Source: an uncultured archaeon
GTDB taxonomy: Archaea; Micrarchaeota; Micrarchaeia; Micrarchaeales; CABMGC01
Assembly (NCBI GenBank): GCA_963787445.1
Contig: CAWBCT010000005.1
Span: 160,001-224,000 of the forward strand
Reading direction: 5' to 3'
DNA length: 64,000 bases
Numbering within the stretch: position 1 is the stretch's first letter; each line of letters opens with the position of its first letter. Below, in pieces: positions 46,791 through 56,037 of this stretch. A model generated the notes under the pieces. It ran no database searches, was not told the origin of the DNA, and saw only the letters and a list, made by a program, of their open reading frames with translations. The position numbers were made by a program, and so were the translations under genes.

Positions 46791-47069
46791 ATGTCAAGAA
46801 CAATAATGATGCAAAAACTGGAACATTCACCTACGCTCAACACCGTACTTATGGTGGAGAATGTAATAAAAAACTCAAAGAACTCCATCATAACAATACC
46901 TCAGATAAAACGTGCCCTCCCAAAGCAGGTAAATCACAATACGTTGCGGGTGGTTCTTGAGTATCTTGAGGTCAGTGGCAAGATAGCGGTGACCTTAAGA
47001 GGCATAACATGGGTGCACAACACTAACCAGAATCTGCGGAATGCAATCTCAAAAGGTCTTGAATTATGA
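46791..47069 (+). CDS. Small wHTH protein, putative antitoxin
   Basis: SPTLNTVLMVE...IKRALPK...LEYLE-x-SGKI; overlaps the next gene by 4 nt. Confidence 0.7.
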   Translation: MSRTIMMQKLEHSPTLNTVLMVENVIKNSKNSIITIPQIKRALPKQVNHNTLRVVLEYLEVSGKIAVTLRGITWVHNTNQNLRNAISKGLEL

Positions 47070-47418
47070 AGCCAGTAAGAGTGGTACTATCTCCTGAAGC
47101 CGAGGAGGCTTATAATGAACTCAACACCAAGGCTGCGGGCTCAAAAGTGGAGAGGAGCATATTAAATTCAATCAAGAAGAAAGTGGAACTTGTTAAGGCA
47201 AACCCACACTATGGGAATCCGATTGCAAAAGACCGCATACCGGAAGAGTACAGGATAAAATACGGAGCGATGAACCTGTTCCACGTGGAACTTTCAAGCT
47301 TCTGGCGAATGCTTTATACACTTACCAATGATGAAACAGAGGTAGAAATAATCGCTTTGTGCTTGACATAGTTGATCATAAAGAATACGATAAGAAATTC
47401 AAATACAGAGGCAGATGA
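47066..47418 (+). CDS. RelE/ParE-like toxin with a one-base deletion near 47356
   Basis: NPHYGNPI and WRMLYT motifs; the shifted frame continues VLDIVDHKEYDKKFKYRGR*. Confidence 0.72.
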
Positions 47419-47493: not shown

Positions 47494-48702
47494 ATGCAGT
47501 ACACGGACATAGTATCGACAGGCTCCGTATACAGGAACATGCGCAATCCCTACTTTCTGAAGGATTACTTCCGCACAAAGACCATCGACCTGGTGAAGGA
47601 CAACGAGGTGTTCGGCTCCTCGCCTCCCGACATTTTCGTGGGCCGCATCGGTTACCCCAACGTCTACATCGGACCCATGGTACCGCCCCAGCTGGGCGAC
47701 ACCTCGATAATGGGCACCCCGGAGCGCTGGGTCGGGAAGAGCATCCCGGAGATAGTGGAGATGCGCTCCATGCTGATACGCGGGATGCACAGGACCAGCG
47801 TGAAGAACGTGGACGGGGGAAAGGTGGAACAGATGGTGAAGGAGATAGCGATAGCCGAGAAGTACAGCGACATCGACCTCAAGCTCAAGCGGGCGCCTTC
47901 CGGCGGGATGAGCTTCAACGAGAACAGCCAGCCGTTCGGCCCGAGCGCGCCGATGGAGTCGATGAGCATAAACAGCATAAAGGCGGACATAAGGCTCGAG
48001 AACGCATACCATGACGATGCCATGGGCGCCGCCACGGCGATGCTCGAGCTTTACGACAAGGGGGTCGAGATGTCCAAGATCCAGAAGGCCCTCGCAGCCG
48101 GAACGCTGGGAAGGAAAGGAAGGCGCGTCTTTGTCCCTACCCGTTGGAGCATAACCGCCGCGGACGACACAATTTCCAAAGCCAAGCTCAAGGCGATAAA
48201 GCAATATAATGCGCTCGATGCGGTGCACGTATTCGAGAACATAGCGCTCGACAACCGCTGGATCATAATCATGGTGCCGGGCAGCTGGGAGTACGAGTCG
48301 ATGGAGGCGTGGTATCCCAACACAACGTGGAACGCAACCGGTAGCTCGGTGGAGATCGGGGCCTCTTATGAGCCATTCGACGGACGCAAAACCTACGCCG
48401 AGATAGGTGGCTGCTACTACGCTGCGCGGCTGGCAGTGAGCGAGCTGCTCGAAAGGAAGCAGGCGCAGGCCAAGGTGCTGATACTCCGCGAGGTCCACTC
48501 GGGCTACATAATGCCCGTGGGCGTGTGGAACGTGAGGGAGCACGTAAGGCAGGCATTAACAACGCAGTCAACAATCTTTGGCGGTCTGGACGACGCTCTC
48601 AAGTATGCTGCTACAAAACTGGAGATACCGCTTGGCACATGGATGCAGCAGGGAAAGCTCCTCAAGCGGATGATTTACCAGAAACGGCTTGCTCTAGCCT
48701 GA
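47494..48702 (+). CDS. nreA: Nre family DNA repair protein (DUF650/DUF651)
   Basis: GSSPP-x-IFVG-x-x-GYP, VPTRWSITA, GGCYYAARL and PVGVWNVRE motifs; C-terminal PIP-like QKRL. Confidence 0.92.
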   Translation: MQYTDIVSTGSVYRNMRNPYFLKDYFRTKTIDLVKDNEVFGSSPPDIFVGRIGYPNVYIGPMVPPQLGDTSIMGTPERWVGKSIPEIVEMRSMLIRGMHRTSVKNVDGGKVEQMVKEIAIAEKYSDIDLKLKRAPSGGMSFNENSQPFGPSAPMESMSINSIKADIRLENAYHDDAMGAATAMLELYDKGVEMSKIQKALAAGTLGRKGRRVFVPTRWSITAADDTISKAKLKAIKQYNALDAVHVFENIALDNRWIIIMVPGSWEYESMEAWYPNTTWNATGSSVEIGASYEPFDGRKTYAEIGGCYYAARLAVSELLERKQAQAKVLILREVHSGYIMPVGVWNVREHVRQALTTQSTIFGGLDDALKYAATKLEIPLGTWMQQGKLLKRMIYQKRLALA

Positions 48703-50899
48703 TTGTCTGCGTGACTCCGCCCAAGATAGTTAGGCATCTGGCATCTTTTTTCTTCTCCCCGAGAATTAAGAGACGGTACTTCTTTTCTGGAAGGAGGCCG
48801 TCTATTTTAAGCATCCCATCGCTGCCTGTTTCGCCGGAAAAAACCTCTTCGCCAACGTAGAAAATCCTCGCCTTGCAGCTCTTAAGCGGCTCTTCCCGCT
48901 CATCCACCATTTTTATGAAAGTCGGGGTCTCGGCTTCGTCATTTGAGATGGGCAGTGTCGTATTTCTCGGGAGATTTAGGACTCCGGTCTTGAGAAAGAC
49001 AGGGTTCGCTGGCTGTTTCACGCCTTCTATCGAGATTACGTAGCTTGCGGCACACACACGCTGCTCAAGAGTCTTCAACTTGTCCGCAACCGCTTCCTTC
49101 ATTTCCTCGCTGAACACCAAATCGGCCACCGCTAGCTTAACGGCGTCCGCGCTCTGCCTGAAATAGAGCTTGTTCTGGCAAAGTCTCCTTATGCTAACGT
49201 CTATGTCGGTTACGCTATGGGTTATTATGGAAAGACAAATCCCCTTCTTCCTGAAATCCTGGATTCTCTGCCTTAGATCAAGGCTAGCCGCAGATTCATT
49301 CTCGCTATCGAAAATAAGCTGGGCCTCTTCGACACAGAGCATCATCCGCAATTTGTTATCCCCGCAGGTGTCGAACGAATCAGCGAAGCTATATGCTTGG
49401 TTGAGTATTAACGCGTAGAAGAAGGGCTTCATGGCATTGCTAACCAGCGACAGGTCAAAGACAACGCCCTTCCTTAATAGCTCGCCGAACTCCAGCCCAT
49501 CGGCGTATGCAAACGGACGTTTGAATAGCATCAGCCTCAGGCTTTGGAGGGCCGCCATTATGTTCTCTCCGTGTTTTGTATATTTTATGCCGGTGTTGGT
49601 TCTCTTTGCATGCCGCTCCACTATTGCGTTCTCTATGGCTTCGTACACCAAAAGGGGGTCTGGATTATGGGTCTTAGAATACACGCCTCGGAAAGCTGCA
49701 AGCAGGCATTTTTCCATAGGTCCGCGGTAGGGTCCTGCTGCAGATGCTGATGCCATCAGCATGGCGAGATTCTCGTAGAAGCGCTCTATGTTTATTTCTG
49801 CCGAGCATCTGAAGAAGTTGATCCTTGAACCTTTATCATAAAGCCTTATTATCTTCATACTTAACTTCTCTCCAAAATCGTTCCATTCGTCTGTTGGCGC
49901 AAGCACCATGGATAAAGGCCTGGAAGAGAGTAGGGCTTTTTCCATTATGCCCATCGCCGCGAAGCTCTTGCCAGCACCTGGCAAGCCAGTTATCATCAGG
50001 CCTAAATTTAGGTTCTGCATGGGTATTGCAGCTGGCTTGCTTGTCTCTAGGATCCCTTTATCCATATAAGTTCCAAGTGACAAAGTACCTTCTCCAGTTA
50101 GGAAAGATGTTTCTATTGCGCTTTTTCGTGGTATCGAATCGGAAAAGCTGAGCATCAGTGCTGCTCTCTGCATTGAAAAGGGTGTTGAATTAAACCTAGG
50201 AACAACAGCGTAGATCTTTTCGAGATTACGTTGCCCTAGCTTGAAACTTTCGGATATGAAAAGCTTGGAGCGTATATAATGCAGAATTTCTGGCGAGGGG
50301 CTGGTAACCACAATAATTACGTTGTAGGCAGTTCCATTGTTCATCAAGGAGGAATTAAGCATCTCTAACATTGATGACAAGACCCTGCGCTCATCAGAAT
50401 CGTAGTAAAGGTCGTTTTGCACAGAGCCAGAACCAGGGTTGCCTAGTGGTACGGTAAGCTTTACCTCCTTCCGGCTAAGCTCGTGTTCAATTTTATGTTT
50501 TACAGACAGTACATGATCCTGTGAAGCTGGGGTGAAAGAGATTACGATGTCCGAATCGTTTCCTGCAAATAAAGTGTATAGGTCACTGAAGCATTGTAAA
50601 ACAGTTTCAATTCTGGATTCCTTATAATCCAGATATGGAGATAACACCAGAGCCCCTTCAACGGTTGGTCTTGATTTTGTTTCAGACAACTTTAATCCGG
50701 GAATGGCATTATTCAGCCGATTAGCCTGTTGGGGATTCTCAAGTATCAAAAATGTCTCGGATGACTTAAGACAATGGTGCAAAAGAAATTGCTTTCCGTC
50801 AAGTAGATGAAGGAACTTCTCGTAGTCTACATCCATGGGCAAACTTTCAATTCTAAAGGTGTAGGGATTGCCCAGAGATTCACCAGAGAGAGTAAGCAA
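48662..50899 (-). CDS. HerA/VirB4/VirD4-family ATPase with C-terminal beta-sandwich domain
   Basis: Walker A GLPGAGKS, Walker B LCVEEAQ and FRKKG motif; start may be CTG at 50875. Confidence 0.85.
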   Translation of the reverse strand: MLTLSGESLGNPYTFRIESLPMDVDYEKFLHLLDGKQFLLHHCLKSSETFLILENPQQANRLNNAIPGLKLSETKSRPTVEGALVLSPYLDYKESRIETVLQCFSDLYTLFAGNDSDIVISFTPASQDHVLSVKHKIEHELSRKEVKLTVPLGNPGSGSVQNDLYYDSDERRVLSSMLEMLNSSLMNNGTAYNVIIVVTSPSPEILHYIRSKLFISESFKLGQRNLEKIYAVVPRFNSTPFSMQRAALMLSFSDSIPRKSAIETSFLTGEGTLSLGTYMDKGILETSKPAAIPMQNLNLGLMITGLPGAGKSFAAMGIMEKALLSSRPLSMVLAPTDEWNDFGEKLSMKIIRLYDKGSRINFFRCSAEINIERFYENLAMLMASASAAGPYRGPMEKCLLAAFRGVYSKTHNPDPLLVYEAIENAIVERHAKRTNTGIKYTKHGENIMAALQSLRLMLFKRPFAYADGLEFGELLRKGVVFDLSLVSNAMKPFFYALILNQAYSFADSFDTCGDNKLRMMLCVEEAQLIFDSENESAASLDLRQRIQDFRKKGICLSIITHSVTDIDVSIRRLCQNKLYFRQSADAVKLAVADLVFSEEMKEAVADKLKTLEQRVCAASYVISIEGVKQPANPVFLKTGVLNLPRNTTLPISNDEAETPTFIKMVDEREEPLKSCKARIFYVGEEVFSGETGSDGMLKIDGLLPEKKYRLLILGEKKKDARCLTILGGVTQTIRLEQAVSGKSSA

Positions 50900-51155
50900 T
50901 AATCATCAAGACCAGTAAGCTTGATAGGAGAAGAGAGAAAGCAGGCTAACACGGATAGAACGCACAATCGGCTTGTGCGTAGCAATCGTCACCATAACTA
51001 CGGCTAACGATAGCGAGGCGAGTTGTCGAGATCCACAGTTGTGAGGATAAAAGATACGAGATAACAAACGTGTTAATAAAGATTATATTGAATAAAAGAA
51101 CCAATTTTAGTGTTAGGCTGCTATTGCCACCGTATAGGTTTCTAAATTCTATCAT
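50880..51155 (-). CDS. Small membrane protein, possibly interrupted (TAG at 50946)
   Basis: Hydrophobic N-terminal segment; the same frame resumes hydrophobic (PAFSLLLSSLLVLMIIAYSLW*) after the stop. Confidence 0.45.
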
Positions 51156-51343
51156 AGAAGTTTCACCAAAGTAAAGGAAAGCAACAGAACCGCAATGAAG
51201 CCTCCCATTTTGGATAGAAGCCCATCGTAATGTCTATTACTGCCGGAAATTGAAATGTAGATTGCGATCAGCAATGTGATGAGACTTGCAGCAATTCCGC
51301 TGAAGTAAATTACAAAATAAAGAAATTCGGTTATCAAAAGCAT
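51152..51343 (-). CDS. Small 2-TM membrane protein (CedA2/minor-pilin-like size)
   Basis: 63 aa; two hydrophobic helices; overlaps the next gene by 4 nt. Confidence 0.6.
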   Translation of the reverse strand: MLLITEFLYFVIYFSGIAASLITLLIAIYISISGSNRHYDGLLSKMGGFIAVLLLSFTLVKLL

Positions 51344-51367
51344 ATCAAGACCTATATTAAAATGATA

Positions 51368-51907
51368 TTAGACGTTAGAAAAAAGGGAAGCGTGGCTGAA
51401 AAGCGGCTTCCGAAAAACAACAATTGCGATTTTATCCTTGGAATGTCGGATTTTGGTACTCGTATTATTTTGCTTAGAGTCCCGTACTTTGAGAGGGCAT
51501 TGCGATCCAAGTAATCTAGGACTCCAAAATTGTAAAAGCCAGATTTTTGGGTATCTGTAATTTGGGGTGCCGCGCCAGCCAATAATAAGCATGTCATTTG
51601 AGGTTTTTTCAAAGGTCTTTCGTCTTATGGAATCGGCGCCAGAATAAACATACCCATTCCAGATAATTGTCTTTGGATTTTTTGAGAGGGTTGCTTTATC
51701 TTCTGCGTGGTCAAGCCCAAACTCATCAATTTGTGTGGGCCTGATGGTTTCGGGAAAAACGATAGAGTGAATTTGATGTTCCGTTGTTTCGTCAGTTATT
51801 CGTATCTTATTTGCTTTGCTATGCAGCGAACGCACGAAGCACATGAAGGCTACTCCGCCCAGTATCACTCCAAATTCCCAAACGTAGTAGGAGATTATCT
51901 GGTTCAT
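51368..51907 (-). CDS. Single-TM hypothetical protein
   Basis: N-terminal TM; overlaps the upstream gene by 4 nt. Confidence 0.6.
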   Translation of the reverse strand: MNQIISYYVWEFGVILGGVAFMCFVRSLHSKANKIRITDETTEHQIHSIVFPETIRPTQIDEFGLDHAEDKATLSKNPKTIIWNGYVYSGADSIRRKTFEKTSNDMLIIGWRGTPNYRYPKIWLLQFWSPRLLGSQCPLKVRDSKQNNTSTKIRHSKDKIAIVVFRKPLFSHASLFSNV

Positions 51908-52587
51908 ATGCTCACCAGGCTAAAGAGGTCACCACTGTGCCATATTACATTCATCCCCTGGGTATCACACTTTTCAAGGACCTGCTTGATTACCAATTTT
52001 TCTAATCCTAATTCGGTAGCTACCTGTGTGATGCTTGAACGAGAGGCGTACTTCGTGGCTATCAATGCTGCCGCGAGCCTCTTCACGTTGCCCGAATTTG
52101 CCGAATTGCTAGCCTTGAGTTTCTCAAGTTCGTCTTTCAAAGAGAGTATGCGCCTTGAGAGCACCACCTCTGGCATGCTACCTGGCCTCTCGGGCGCTGC
52201 ATTAATCGGATACTGCTCAAAGTTCTGTCTTGTCAGGGTCTCGATCAAATACGGAAATATGCTCTCAATACGGAATTCGTAGCAGGGCTTTACGAATGAG
52301 GCAAGACTAAGAAGCCTTATCAGGGTTTCTCGCATGAGAAGGAGGGGGGAGGACTCAGAGTAGGTCTCCACGGCGATTCCGACGTTTGAGAACTCTGCCA
52401 TATGAAAATAGTTGTTTGGGGTCTCGCTTTTTATCACGTAACGCAGATCTGTCCCATCGCTAACCTGCTCAAGTGCCGGATAAAGCAGTAGTATCTTTCG
52501 GAGAGCGGCCTTGCTGTTGAGGCGGCCGCTAAGGGGCACCCGCATTGCAAGATAGCTCTTTGGGACCTTTTCACTTCTCATCTTCAA
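51904..52587 (-). CDS. Hypothetical protein with coiled coil and C-terminal wHTH-like domain
   Basis: LSRRILSLKDELEKLK coiled coil; SITQVATELGLEKLVIKQVLEK helix-turn-helix-like segment. Confidence 0.7.
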   Translation of the reverse strand: MKMRSEKVPKSYLAMRVPLSGRLNSKAALRKILLLYPALEQVSDGTDLRYVIKSETPNNYFHMAEFSNVGIAVETYSESSPLLLMRETLIRLLSLASFVKPCYEFRIESIFPYLIETLTRQNFEQYPINAAPERPGSMPEVVLSRRILSLKDELEKLKASNSANSGNVKRLAAALIATKYASRSSITQVATELGLEKLVIKQVLEKCDTQGMNVIWHSGDLFSLVSI

Positions 52588-53689
52588 TCGACCTGTTCAC
52601 AGAAGCTGCAAACGCATCGGCAAGCGACTTTTCCTTCAGGCCAACATGTCTTAAGCTGGAGAGTATCGCAAGCCGGTCTGCCTTCAGTTTTATAAGCTCT
52701 GTTACAAGCATCTCCGCAGAGATTTCGCGCTCGCTGCTGAGCTTGGCCAGCAGTACGGATGGATCGGAGTGCGCAATTTTTCTTATGATTCGCTCCAGTT
52801 TGTTGTATTCTATGTCCACCATGTTTGCACCTTGATTTAAGCGTATGATTGATGGAGGGGTGAATCCTGAAATGTGGGAGATTGCAAATGCCTCTCGAAG
52901 GCCGGCCTTCTTGAGCTGGATGAAAAAACAGGCCCCTATGGGAAGATTTTGGATGAGCGAGATCTGCTCGGTTTCGAGCTGGTAGTTTTTTTCTATCTTT
53001 GCTAGGCTCTCTTTGTTCTGTATTCGGAAGATGAGAATACTTGCAATATTGCCCAGAATGCTTAGCTCTATGTCTTCTATTAGCTGGGATGCTAGAATTA
53101 GCCCGGTATGATATTTCCGACCCTCTCTCACTATTATACTCAACGCGTCGCTTTCCAGCAAAAGCTTCCATGCCTCATCCAACACGATAAAAAGGCGGGA
53201 TTCATCCTTAGTCCCGCGCTGACGCATGTGGAGAGTCAATTCATCTATTAGGCTGGTACCAATCGCTATCTTTTCGTTGTCTTTCATGTTGGCTAAGTTA
53301 AAGTAGATCAATTGCCCTTTGGAAGATTCAAGTAATTTCATCAACTCATTGGTAGCCCCGCAGAGATAGCCAACGAACTCAGCAAATTCGCGGTACTCTC
53401 CGGTGAAATCGATTAGGACAACGCTGTATTCCAATAGCAAGCACATTTTCAGCATTAAATTTTTGGTCAGGTATGTCTTCCCCGAGCCGCTCATTCCAGC
53501 AATGAATATGTGGGGGTTAATTGCTGTAGTTACGTTTAAGAAGAATGGCATCCCCAGCCTTGTGGAACACCCTAAAAATATTCCCTCACCGATGGAAGAG
53601 AGTGTTTTGGCATAATCCGGTTCCGAAAAGCTCGGAAAGACGAGCAACTGTGAAAGTATCTCAGAACCGACTATCAGCTTGCTATCCAT
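52571..53689 (-). CDS. HerA/VirB4 (CedB-like) ATPase
   Basis: NPHIFIAGMSGSGKT, IDFTGEY, IVLDEAW and REGRKY-x-x-GLILASQ motifs. Confidence 0.9.
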   Translation of the reverse strand: MDSKLIVGSEILSQLLVFPSFSEPDYAKTLSSIGEGIFLGCSTRLGMPFFLNVTTAINPHIFIAGMSGSGKTYLTKNLMLKMCLLLEYSVVLIDFTGEYREFAEFVGYLCGATNELMKLLESSKGQLIYFNLANMKDNEKIAIGTSLIDELTLHMRQRGTKDESRLFIVLDEAWKLLLESDALSIIVREGRKYHTGLILASQLIEDIELSILGNIASILIFRIQNKESLAKIEKNYQLETEQISLIQNLPIGACFFIQLKKAGLREAFAISHISGFTPPSIIRLNQGANMVDIEYNKLERIIRKIAHSDPSVLLAKLSSEREISAEMLVTELIKLKADRLAILSSLRHVGLKEKSLADAFAASVNRSIEDEK

Positions 53690-54413
53690 ATATTACACCT
53701 GCACAGGAGAGAAGGACTTCGCCCTTTAGGATTTCATAGTTAAGTTTGGTTGTCGCCGCAAACGCATCGCATATGCGCTCCAATGACTTTGCAGAAATGC
53801 GTGCCGCTTCAGTAGCCGTTGGGGCAGAACCCATGGCCTTCAATATAAGAGAGATCTCAAATGCCTTGCCGCTGGATCGAATGCTCTCCATCTCGGTTTC
53901 GAGAGCCATGGCCTCGCGCCTCAATCCATTTATCTTGTCCTGTTTGTCTGGCCTTACTTTTGTTACTTCTATCTCCTTCATTCGGCGCTTATTGTCAAGG
54001 ATATCAAGCATTCGTTTCTTGTCTGCTCGGGCCATTGTTATAGAGAAGGTGAACGGCTCCTGGATGCTCTCTATAAGTGCTTTTAGAGATGATTGGTCAG
54101 ATTTTGCGGTTCCCTCAAAGGATAGTCTTGCTATCGATATTCCCCTGTAGGTGGAGCCCTCCTTGAGAGTCATCGAGCAGAGGTTCGGGTTGAGACTGTA
54201 TCCATTGTTTTTCTCTATTATTTTGGAGTGCTTTATGAGCAAGTTATTGATCAAATGGCCGGAGTTCATGCAAATGCCTGAAAACAAAAGACAGATGCAG
54301 GAAAATGGAATGACAATATAATTTCCAGTAACTAGGCTTAGGAGCCCAAGCAGCACGGCGCAGCCGTAGAAAAGGAACGAATAAAGCCTATTCACCAACT
54401 CTTTCTCGTCCAT
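53682..54413 (-). CDS. 2-TM plus coiled-coil protein (VirB3/VirB4 N-terminal-like)
   Basis: Two N-terminal TMs and a coiled coil; overlaps the ATPase start. Confidence 0.6.
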   Translation of the reverse strand: MDEKELVNRLYSFLFYGCAVLLGLLSLVTGNYIVIPFSCICLLFSGICMNSGHLINNLLIKHSKIIEKNNGYSLNPNLCSMTLKEGSTYRGISIARLSFEGTAKSDQSSLKALIESIQEPFTFSITMARADKKRMLDILDNKRRMKEIEVTKVRPDKQDKINGLRREAMALETEMESIRSSGKAFEISLILKAMGSAPTATEAARISAKSLERICDAFAATTKLNYEILKGEVLLSCAGVIYG

Positions 54414-54417
54414 TCAA

Positions 54418-55482
54418 TCACAGTATGTCAAATTTTCCGAAGAAAGCCTCCGAACCGAGTAGCTCAGCAAACTCGCGTATGGAGATCCCGGTCATTATCA
54501 AACTGAACACTGGGAGAACGAAGGCATAAACTATGAAATACGCTAGCTGACTTAGGAGCGAGTTGATCAAGGTCGCTATATAGCTTGTAAACCCAGTTAT
54601 GACAGATTCGATTGGCCCAATTAGGCTACCATAGGAGGCGCCTGTGGCGCTGGTCTGATTGGTTCCGGCCGTGCTTAATAGAGTGTCTTTGATGTTGGAT
54701 GCACTTAGCGATACTTGCTGCAGGCTGGTCTGGTTTACTGCAGAACCGTAGCTATTCGCCATAGTTGCATTGAATACGTAGGAGAGAGGCAGGACCACAT
54801 AAAGCCCTATGGCAACGGCCATTAGGAAACCTCCAAGCTTGCGTGTTGGGTAAAAAGTTCTTAGAATTATACCAGTTGGAAGCAATATGGTCAATGCACC
54901 TATTGCGGCAAATTGCAGCACCGCAGCTTGAACTATCGCACTTATTGCTATAGTGCTTAGTATTCGTATGATGTATGATACTTGGCTTATTATTGGGGCA
55001 AAAACATACGAAGGAGAAAAACTTACCAATATCAAATTGATTTTTATTGCAGCTATGAGACCCATTATGCCATTCAGTACCGTAAGTTCAGCCATCGTTT
55101 CGGAGACGCTGGAGAGTACCGAGTAGTGGGACGCGCCCATAAAAGTGTAGGGGGTTGGGCTGACAAGATAATCATAGGATAGGCATATTGCAGTATTGTT
55201 GGACATGAAGGAACTGCAGTTTAAGGATGTAGAGTTGGTCAATGTCAGTTGGTTTATGAGGAGAGTTACAGGCCCGTTGGTATAAAAAAGGGTAAAAATA
55301 GTTCCAATTATGATACCATTGAGTACGCATTCTAAAAGTTCTTTTCTTCCAAAGTCCTTAAGTCGTTTTTCATTGAATGCGTAGCCTAGACCAAATGAGA
55401 TTCCGGCTACTGCAATCATTATGCTTATCACGTATACGGCTACTGTGAATCCGTACTGTCCGATGGCCATAAGTATAACCAA
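54418..55482 (-). CDS. CedA/VirB6-like polytopic membrane protein
   Basis: About 6 TMs; LLPTGIILRTFYPTRKLGGFLMAVAIGLYVVLP resembles the CedA/VirB6 core hairpin. Confidence 0.65.
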   Translation of the reverse strand: MVILMAIGQYGFTVAVYVISIMIAVAGISFGLGYAFNEKRLKDFGRKELLECVLNGIIIGTIFTLFYTNGPVTLLINQLTLTNSTSLNCSSFMSNNTAICLSYDYLVSPTPYTFMGASHYSVLSSVSETMAELTVLNGIMGLIAAIKINLILVSFSPSYVFAPIISQVSYIIRILSTIAISAIVQAAVLQFAAIGALTILLPTGIILRTFYPTRKLGGFLMAVAIGLYVVLPLSYVFNATMANSYGSAVNQTSLQQVSLSASNIKDTLLSTAGTNQTSATGASYGSLIGPIESVITGFTSYIATLINSLLSQLAYFIVYAFVLPVFSLIMTGISIREFAELLGSEAFFGKFDIL

Positions 55483-55491
55483 ACCAATTGT

Positions 55492-55887
55492 TTAGAGCAC
55501 ATTAGCTGTTACATTGGTAAGCAAACCCGTTGATGCCAGCGCTAAGCCTGTAGAAGCAACAGAGAGAACCGCGACAATTATGGCGCCGATGATTATGTCA
55601 ATTGAGGCACTATGGAGTGTTGCTCGTTTCTGACTCGGAAAAAGTTGACCTATGGCATAAAATATTCCAGCTACTACAAAAAGTACGGCGCTTAGAGTTG
55701 GACCAACATGTACCAAGATGCTCTGTATCGAGTTTAGTGTTGATATTATGTCAAACAAATAAGTGCCAGAAGCATTGGTTGCTCGGATCAAACCGATTCC
55801 CAAACCAATCGAGAGAAGGGGTATTTTCACTGCAATGTTTCCGACATTTTGCATCTTAACAGACCATTTATTCATGTATCCCACCAT
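55492..55887 (-). CDS. VirB2/TrbC/CedA1-like pilin
   Basis: Leader peptide, then two hydrophobic helices (AGIFYAIGQ...KR...IIIGAII) separated by a short basic loop. Confidence 0.7.
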   Translation of the reverse strand: MVGYMNKWSVKMQNVGNIAVKIPLLSIGLGIGLIRATNASGTYLFDIISTLNSIQSILVHVGPTLSAVLFVVAGIFYAIGQLFPSQKRATLHSASIDIIIGAIIVAVLSVASTGLALASTGLLTNVTANVL

Positions 55888-56037
55888 ATATTCTAGTAAA
55901 TATTTTATACTTCAATAAATATATAAACTTTGGGGTGTGCCCGTGTTGGAATCGATGAAATATGAAGCAGGTCTAATCCGCTAAATCTCGTTAAGAAAGC
56001 AACGTTTATATTGCTGACAATGCTCATTCATACGTGT

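Follow-up and report, generated by a model that had tools for sequence, protein, structure and literature searches.

A probable type IV secretion system-derived machine of the Ced/Ted kind encoded in a micrarchaeal genome

Genes at the locus

We analyzed a 64,000-nucleotide stretch of an uncultured micrarchaeal genome (G000:C5:160001-224000), called the window throughout, and found in it a block of nine genes whose products probably make up a machine derived from a type IV secretion system (T4SS). The genome assembly comprises 1.05 Mb on 19 contigs, is 82% complete and has a contamination rating of 5.4%; contig C5, which holds the window, is 659 kb long. The block spans positions 48662-55887 of the window, and in the list of the window's open reading frames (ORFs) all nine genes lie tightly spaced on the minus strand. 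We number them g1 to g9 in the order in which they are read. The successive junctions are gaps of 9 and 4 nucleotides (nt), three overlaps (8, 17 and 4 nt), a gap of 24 nt, an overlap of 4 nt and a gap of 46 nt. The features are as follows, with lengths in amino acids (aa), transmembrane abbreviated as TM and the basis of each description in parentheses.

55492..55887, minus strand: g1, VirB2/TrbC-type pilin precursor, 131 aa (ORF, alignment, AlphaFold2 [AF2] model, Pfam)
54418..55482, minus strand: g2, polytopic membrane protein, candidate VirB6/CedA-like channel or platform, 354 aa (AF2, Foldseek and VIA searches)
53682..54413, minus strand: g3, two-TM hairpin with a helical cytoplasmic domain, predicted anchor of ATPase-a, 243 aa (hydropathy, complex model)
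52571..53689, minus strand: g4, ATPase-a, HerA/VirB4/CedB-like P-loop ATPase, 372 aa (Pfam, NCBIfam, PDB profile)
51904..52587, minus strand: g5, soluble protein with a possible C-terminal helix-turn-helix (HTH), 227 aa (weak matches to HTH regulators)
51368..51907, minus strand: g6, protein with one N-terminal TM segment, 179 aa (hydropathy)
51152..51343, minus strand: g7, double-TM miniprotein, 63 aa (hydropathy)
50946..51155, minus strand: g8, single-TM protein, 69 aa (hydropathy)
48662..50899, minus strand: g9, ATPase-b, soluble, divergent HerA/VirB4/CedD-like protein, 745 aa (Walker motifs, NCBIfam, hhalign)
55901..55930, minus strand: AT-rich, promoter-like stretch upstream of g1 (reading of the sequence)
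47494..48702, plus strand: nreA, archaeal Nre DNA-repair factor family, a neighbor outside the machine (Pfam Nre_N 1.6e-83, Nre_C 9.4e-37)

Genes g1 to g4 and g9 are real genes and not chance ORFs, since they have orthologues (33-84% identity) and 16 of 20 related loci show them in unchanged order. The GC content of the block is 0.450, compared with 0.531 in the rest of the window and 0.529 in the genome. An earlier note on this DNA, made by reading the sequence, had described nine co-oriented minus-strand genes that are richer in AT than their flanks, and its coordinates proved exact and its remark on composition holds for this block. The gene order it proposed stands for the pilin, the polytopic protein, the two-TM protein, the two ATPases and the small TM proteins. 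Its label of winged helix-turn-helix (wHTH) protein for g5 is weak; the best match has an E value of 0.046.

A pilin-family protein at the head of the block

The g1 protein has a variable, signal-like N-terminus followed by two conserved hydrophobic helices with a basic loop (K87, R88) between them. Its mature part is strongly conserved in an alignment of 17 orthologues (alignment A1). The AF2 model, with a predicted local distance difference test score (pLDDT) of 78, places helices at residues 8-37, 42-82 and 85-130, corresponding to a leader helix and a helical hairpin. The Pfam family T4SS_pilin (PF18895) is matched at E<=1 by 16 of the 17 orthologues, the best match being 4.1e-7. Among the 16 relatives of the window's g1, 13 match this family at E<=0.01 and two exceed its cut-off of 26.6 bits, scoring 30.0 and 30.4 bits. 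The TrbC/VirB2 family of Pfam is likewise matched by 13 of the 17. The g1 orthologous group belongs to the pilin family, and its topology fits the VirB2/TrbC type, as the earlier note had proposed.

An N-x-S/T sequon is present in the C-terminal tail of all 17 g1 orthologues, with N125 invariant. If the tail faces outward, the sequon would be an N-glycosylation site on the surface of the filament.

A polytopic membrane protein and candidate channel

We found 157 homologues of g2 at E<=0.001. The 120 listed have neither a Pfam family nor an informative name; those named by organism are mostly metagenome-assembled genomes of Micrarchaeota or Marsarchaeota, in line with the earlier reading of the source as a DPANN-like archaeon. 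A profile search of 1.84 billion representatives returned 2186 clusters at the same threshold. Pfam assigned no family to 34 distant members of the g2 family, and the names of ten distant clusters were only 'hypothetical', Micrarchaeota or 'uncultured archaeon'. The g2 protein has no significant sequence or profile match in Pfam or PDB, and a search of NCBIfam with g1 and g2 at E<=1 gave nothing but one irrelevant match. In the ESM Atlas, a related archaeal cluster (score 0.91) bears the automatic name 'CedA1 domain-containing', with Pfam PF27251 present on 23% of its members; we treat this as a lead only.

The AF2 model of g2 (pLDDT 77, predicted template modeling score 0.69) resembles VirB6. 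The best five Foldseek matches are all TrwI/VirB6 of R388 (best E 0.041, probability 0.97), and in a second look with VIA the same protein took ranks 1-3 (Z 8.9, 226 of 272 residues aligned, root-mean-square deviation 5.6). A VIA search independent of Foldseek gave VirB6 at Z 8.4 over 225 residues and Legionella DotA at Z 8.4 over 289 residues. Overall, the VIA alignments to VirB6 range over Z 8.4-8.9 and 225-228 residues. The alignments to VirB6 and DotA are by far the longest among the top-ranked rows; most of the others are short helical hairpins. Both aligners rank VirB6 first, with nearly the entire model covered, but this predicted link in fold is suggestive only. Two cysteines of g2, C89 and C100, are invariant and lie in a predicted outer loop.

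Two ATPases, one with a predicted membrane anchor

The g4 protein (ATPase-a) matches the Pfam families AAA_10 (9.6e-13), DUF87 (2.6e-10) and TraG P-loop (6.5e-9), and its Walker A and B motifs are invariant among orthologues. Its best NCBIfam model is CedB (NF041017; E 1.5e-16, 60.2 bits, covering model positions 247-317 and a second stretch). CedB is also the best model for all 17 g4 orthologues, none of them near its cut-off, and CedD matches 15 of the 17. Further matches are to Pox_A32 (3e-5), to STIV B204 packaging ATPases (1.6e-6) and to antiphage HerA models. The ATPase domain of g4 begins at about residue 30, so the protein has no counterpart of the TM and N-terminal parts of CedB.

These missing parts may be supplied by the gene just upstream. 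The g3 protein consists of a two-TM hairpin and a helical cytoplasmic part, and the end of its gene overlaps the start of g4 by 8 nt. It has no match in Pfam, NCBIfam or PDB, profile search included. A model of the g3-g4 complex reached an ipSAE of 0.62 (0.61-0.63 in three runs), compared with 0.00 for the best of three controls; the runs share at least 88% of their contacts, and the pLDDT of the partners is at least 74. The ipSAE mark is reached by 58 of 80 solved complexes and by 2 of 110 mismatched pairs, a calibration that is rough here given the use of our own alignments. In the modeled interface, residues 99-224 of g3 contact the N-terminus of g4. From this model, g3 is predicted to anchor ATPase-a in the membrane and to act as its N-terminal module. 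We looked for fused g3-g4 proteins of 652-2000 aa and obtained two matches, neither of them a fusion; a fusion would have about 615 aa and fall outside that range, so the search is no evidence against such proteins. One metagenomic homologue of ATPase-a (P0269, 1039 aa) carries intein domains (PF14528 and PF14890) within its DUF87/AAA_10 ATPase.

The second ATPase, g9 (ATPase-b), is soluble by hydropathy. It consists of an N-terminal domain of about 290 aa, an ATPase domain whose Walker A and Walker B motifs are set apart by a large insert, and a C-terminal extension. Walker A (G305-K311) and the Walker B residues E524/E525, in the pattern EE(A), are invariant among orthologues. The best NCBIfam model is CedD (NF053655; 2e-6, 26.8 bits). 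Among 21 g9 orthologues, 12 match CedD (best 7.9e-13), nine the VirB4-like CD1110 model and five CedB. A search of PDB with the single g9 sequence gave nothing; its neighbors in the Atlas are DUF87/HerA_C clusters. The ATPase domains of g9 and g4 are homologous (hhalign probability 97.5%, E 5e-12). Models of VirB4 match g4 and g9 in part (TIGR00929 at 28.5 bits, with a cut-off of 643 bits), and the N-terminal domain of VirB4 was not recognized in either. By their sequences, both proteins belong to the HerA/VirB4 superfamily (FtsK/HerA/VirB4), as the earlier note had assigned them.

Other HerA-like ORFs are present in the genome. A 551-aa ORF with the same CedB and VirD4 model scores occurs on two contigs (G000:C11:42836-43639 and G000:C18:1643-2446), which suggests a duplicated or redundantly assembled region, and a further HerA-like fragment lies at C3:8097-8696.

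Accessory genes

Between the two ATPase genes lie g5 to g8. Residues 160-220, approximately, of g5 give sub-significant matches to HTH regulators in a profile search, and the protein may carry such a domain. BLAST finds g5 orthologues in 8 of 20 loci. By position, 15 of 16 loci have an ORF of 207-226 aa in its place, and the sixteenth has a BLAST orthologue of 263 aa. Genes g6 to g8 encode small proteins with one to three TM segments each by hydropathy, and they have few BLAST matches in relatives because they are too diverged. For g6, BLAST found no sequence match in related loci; positional equivalents (148-336 aa, zero to three predicted TM segments) occur in 15 of 16, and in L027 the gene is not separable. 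An ORF of 40-69 aa with one to three TM segments takes the position of g7 in all 16 loci. BLAST gave one weak orthologue of g8 (L030, 37% identity), and ORFs of 60-111 aa with two to four TM segments hold its position in 9 of 16 loci.

Distribution, synteny and phylogeny

The operon is widespread in its order. We found g9 in 49 of 61 genomes of the order, including 33 of 40 high-quality ones. Orthologues of g2, counted by hand at a best E<=1e-40 with the unpublished genomes G050 and G219 included, occur in 104 of 128 genomes of the order, made up of 46 of 54 in the window's family and 58 of 74 in its sister family, and in 9 of 172 genomes elsewhere in the phylum. Across the phylum, 266 of 301 genomes give a match to the g2 profile, but many of these matches are weak and come from a paralogous locus.

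Synteny was compared at 20 loci around g9 homologues. Genes g1, g2, g3 and g4 lie upstream of g9 in the same order in 16 of them. In the other four, g9 stands apart from the remaining genes or at a contig end, and three of those genomes have a g2 orthologue elsewhere. On the far side of g9, nreA lies within 3 kb in eight of the 20 loci, abutting it in five, and pepQ is often next; this junction is kept in two families. The flank on the g1 side is variable. In a maximum-likelihood tree of 21 g9 proteins the two taxonomic families are split at 100/100, and the window groups with two genomes of the same genus at 100/98.

Five near-complete genomes of the sister family do not have the operon. They represent five genera, four of which also include carriers. 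All five operon-free genomes keep pepQ and nreA together with other genes alongside. In the single-contig genome G051, a copy of g2 (G051:C1:384094-385071) has an in-frame TAG, no g9 was found, and the operon may be decaying. Since near-complete genomes do without it and G051 has this stop-bearing g2, we conclude that the operon can be dispensed with and has been lost more than once. The pattern as a whole favors vertical inheritance with losses over an integrative and conjugative element (ICE). Several g9 matches in other genomes also list one or two in-frame stops, which may fall inside the gene or at the match ends.

Searches for signs of mobility

No direct repeat resembling an attachment (att) site brackets the block; the repeats found are short and at chance level. 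The 659-kb contig carries no integrase, and the four integrase matches of the genome are on contigs C9, C14 and C17. Searches of the 82%-complete genome gave no match to relaxase (PF03432) or TrwC (PF08751). Genome-wide, no coupling protein VirD4 (PF02534) exceeded the cut-off, and there are weak matches in an ATPase on other contigs. Translated searches (tblastn) with g2, g9 and g4 against 72,556 plasmids, and with g4 against 50,697 phage records, gave no match. In the block itself, Pfam and NCBIfam showed no capsid, NurA or defense partner.

The earlier note had described the locus as chromosomal and free of relaxase, integrase and att repeat, and had named a sporadic block linked to a relaxase or integrase as one finding that would speak against it. 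What we observed is a block that is not sporadic, with a g2 orthologue in 104 of 128 sampled genomes of the order and conserved synteny, together with no relaxase match in the genome, no integrase on the contig and no att-like repeat around the block.

A second T4SS-like locus and the wider family

A second locus, directly past a ribosomal-protein operon, lies outside the window at G000:C5:~554000-567600 (L044:3081-16569). The g2 profile finds five to six tandem genes there. First comes a multi-TM protein of 131 aa, then a protein of 558 aa with a single N-terminal TM segment, followed by six polytopic paralogues of 359-475 aa, two single-TM proteins of about 270 aa, a HerA/VirB4-like ATPase of 512 aa and two small proteins. 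All six paralogues carry the core motif of g2, and the ATPase matches g4 by BLASTP at 3e-13. This ATPase is much better conserved than g4 and g9, with identities of 60-78% within the order and 50-58% over the class. At E<=1e-30 it occurs in 111 of the 121 phylum genomes sampled, operon-free ones included. Because of this locus and its better-conserved ATPase, we regard the operon in the window as a pilin-bearing, faster-evolving member of a wider T4SS-like family in the phylum.

In some other families of the class (G104:C30, G115:C1 and G091:C20), a strongly g2-like gene with E values of 1e-53 to 1e-65 has as its neighbor, at a distance of about 1 kb, an additional copy of the ATPase type found in the second locus. 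This hints at a third arrangement of T4SS-like parts.

Interpretation

On balance we think it probable that the block encodes a Ced/Ted-like machine derived from a T4SS, with DNA as its most likely cargo. It is probably a chromosomal, vertically inherited T4SS derivative that corresponds in Micrarchaeota to the crenarchaeal systems Ced and Ted and forms a new DPANN variant of them. In such a machine g1, whose fold and family are described above, would enter the membrane as a two-helix hairpin behind its signal-like N-terminus, which may be cleaved, and would polymerize into a thin pilus or conduit as VirB2, CedA1 and TedC do. The g2 protein, with its weak resemblance in fold, may be a polytopic platform or channel like VirB6 or CedA. 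The g3 protein is predicted to bind ATPase-a and would tether it to the membrane; the pair has the size of a protein such as CedB, in which TM segments, N-terminal domain and ATPase form one chain. To judge from its best family matches, g9 would be a second, soluble ATPase that resembles CedD or TedD or has a coupling role. The g5 protein may bind DNA or regulate the operon, and g6 to g8 would be small membrane accessories. DNA would then move from cell to cell without a relaxase, as in Ced. The hints that DNA is the cargo are the CedB and CedD models as best matches of the ATPases, the possible HTH protein and the nreA neighbor; the last of these may be mere ancestral gene order.

Several results weigh against this interpretation. 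No component in the window reaches the cut-off of a curated family, be it the pilin, the CedB or the CedD model. The window's own g1 matches PF18895 at E 0.032 with 14.7 bits, below the cut-off of that family, and the scores of g4 and g9 are far under the 700-bit equivalog cut-off of CedB and the 600-bit cut-off of CedD, respectively. Sequence and profile searches of PDB gave no link of g1 to solved CedA1, TedC or VirB2 chains; the g1 profile matched no pilin at E<=10 in that database, where the pilus entries for TedC and CedA1 from PMC9905601 are expected. Fold searches with g1 (Foldseek against PDB, wide VIA search) returned generic helical hairpins only and are uninformative either way. A comparison of the g1 and g2 profiles (hhalign, probability 0.8%) lends no support to a relation like that of CedA1 within CedA, unlike the relation of CedA and CedA1 reported for Ced in PMC9905601. 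The match of g2 to VirB6 (Foldseek E 0.04, Z 8.4-8.9) is within the chance range for helical proteins according to the tool's own note; of the VirB6/CedA-like channel named in the earlier note, the top structural match stands and the assignment stays suggestive. By PDB profile, g4 is nearer to HerA (8wiv, 6.4e-22) than to VirB4 (4ag5, 4.9e-13). The near-complete genomes that lack the operon add to these points.

The same hardware might instead serve an obligate symbiont as a host-directed conduit or adhesion pilus, for uptake or delivery of protein, lipid or nucleotides and not of DNA for repair. This has some appeal for a DPANN-type genome of about 1 Mb whose named homologues are from Micrarchaeota and in whose phylum T4SS-like loci are widely kept, and PMC12102498 describes a parallel in the relaxase-free, chromosomal T4SS of Patescibacteria. 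The points against it are indirect: the ATPases find their best family matches in the DNA-import proteins CedB and CedD, a possible HTH protein is part of the operon and the DNA-repair gene nreA is its conserved neighbor. Moreover, an operon that is dispensable in several complete genomes is a poor fit to an essential host interface, and we consider a host-directed role unlikely, though well short of negligible. A broader version would join the operon in the window and the six-paralogue locus as phylum-wide T4SS-derived machines of a DPANN-host connection apparatus, with the g1 conduit importing host DNA, nucleotides or macromolecules. We hold this to be doubtful; if true, it would be an archaeal analogue of the Patescibacteria T4SS that imports what reduced genomes cannot make.

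Another origin, as a decayed ICE or the remnant of an archaeal conjugative plasmid inserted beside tRNA-Gln, would account for the tRNA-Gln gene 150 nt past g1 and for the composition of the block, whose GC is 0.08 under that of the genome and as low as in 4.1% of block-length genome windows (n=925). It would also fit the varying presence or absence of the operon within genera, the g1-side flank that differs among genomes and the statement in PMC9905601 that archaeal conjugative plasmids too have no recognizable relaxases. But tRNA-Gln is the neighbor in none of the 16 related loci, and low GC is not a trait of the family, since of the 16 related loci 10 have the block below its flanks and 6 above them. 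The lack of an att-like repeat, of an integrase on the contig and of plasmid or phage matches, the nreA-side junction conserved in two families and a g9 tree that follows taxonomy (100/100) also speak against insertion, and such an origin seems very improbable to us. We give equally little credence to a reading outside T4SS altogether, in which a HerA/FtsK-type ATPase module for repair, defense or virus packaging happens to stand beside unrelated membrane proteins. It can draw on the higher scores of ATPase-a on HerA structures than on VirB4, on the matches of g4 to Pox_A32, STIV B204 and antiphage HerA models, and on the weak fold support for the membrane protein. Set against it are the pilin-family matches in 16 of 17 orthologues, VirB6 as the top full-length structural match, the strict linkage of pilin, channel, anchor and ATPase genes in 16 loci, the predicted binding of g3 to g4, and a block in which no capsid, NurA or defense partner was seen and which has no phage matches. 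The idea of virus packaging itself was dropped, as phage matches were nil and the block holds no capsid-like gene.

If the Ced/Ted-like interpretation is true, domesticated conjugation machinery extends to a second archaeal superphylum, and the block becomes a concrete candidate for exchange of DNA or other material by ultra-small symbionts with their kin or hosts. The defined gene set can be tested in co-cultures of cultivable Micrarchaeota, for which natural operon-free relatives are ready comparisons.

Neighboring features

Within the AT-rich stretch upstream of g1, TTTATATA at 55927-55920 on the minus strand, 40 nt before the ATG of g1, is a putative archaeal TATA box of that gene. Among the sequencing runs listed, the stretch occurs in five DNA runs from two studies and in no RNA run. 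At the other end of the block, nreA is convergent with g9 and overlaps its end. Two genes lie between pepQ and nreA on the plus strand (46791-47371), a 92-aa ORF followed by a 101-aa protein of the ParE-toxin family (PF05016, E 2.6e-5). Because of this match, the pair is likely a toxin-antitoxin cassette.

Comparison with known systems

Both the Ced and the Ted system represent domesticated T4SS that comprise VirB2-, VirB6- and VirB4-like parts without a relaxase, and their components have no mutual sequence similarity (PMC9905601). In the papers considered they are reported from Thermoproteota alone, namely from Sulfolobales, Desulfurococcales and Thermoproteales, and they may be 'a common trait in thermoproteota' (PMC11823120). 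Ced requires CedD as a second ATPase; both CedB and CedD belong to the HerA clade of ATPases, the N-terminal domain of each matches part of that of VirB4, and about half of CedB, CedD and VirB4 proteins have TM helices (PMC11868833). Some CedD orthologues have no TM segment, and TedD lies near the ted genes (PMC11823120). Our literature searches turned up no T4SS- or Ced-like system described from Micrarchaeota, though a mention in supplementary tables is possible. The one DPANN case that came up is that of the VirB4/TraG-like domains in giant nanohaloarchaeal proteins (PMC10266531).

Conjugative T4SS (MPF-FATA) share with the block a match to VirB2-type pilins, a tentative VirB6-like fold and an ATPase of the VirB4 superfamily. 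They differ from it in having a relaxase and a coupling protein, neither of which was found here, and VirB8, VirB3 and hydrolase components were not recognized in the block. The block is also not on a mobile element, and its ATPases have no recognizable VirB4 N-terminal domain in one chain with the ATPase. A closer likeness in setting is that of the Patescibacteria T4SS, which is chromosomal, free of relaxase and widespread in an ultra-small symbiotic lineage, and which is reported as essential for epibiotic growth in Saccharimonadia (PMC12102498).

The Ced system of Sulfolobales (CedA, CedA1, CedA2, CedB and CedD/CedE) is, like the block, chromosomal and relaxase-free (PMC11868833). Both have a small two-helix protein of the pilin type, a polytopic protein that is VirB6-like (tentatively so in the block) and two HerA-clade ATPases, with part of the ATPase machinery anchored in the membrane (in the block, by prediction). 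Unlike in Ced, the TM and N-terminal part is encoded on its own here (by g3), g9 is without a TM segment and g5 to g8 are additional. The ced genes are dispersed in Sulfolobales, and the block is a single operon. Ced is hosted by Thermoproteota, whereas the block belongs to a DPANN archaeon. The block's pilin has a signal-like leader as TedC does, whose signal sequence is cleaved, and in this it is unlike CedA1 (PMC9905601). The earlier note's claim of a distinct architecture does not hold for the two-ATPase layout, which has already been described for Ced as CedB with CedD (PMC11868833).

In the Ted system of Thermoproteales (TedA to TedD), the genes for pilin, VirB6-like protein and ATPase are clustered as in the block, the pilin has a cleavable-looking signal and a second ATPase, TedD, is encoded near the locus (PMC11823120, PMC9905601). 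The differences are that the g1 profile shows no similarity to solved TedC, that the conserved neighbor is nreA and not ParA, Rad50 or HerA-NurA genes, and that g4 is closer to HerA and CedB, TedB having been described as VirB4-like. We therefore class the block as a machine that would work like Ced and Ted but assign it to neither, since its scores stay below the equivalog cut-offs, its predicted tether is split off as a separate gene, g5 to g8 are added and its host is a DPANN archaeon.

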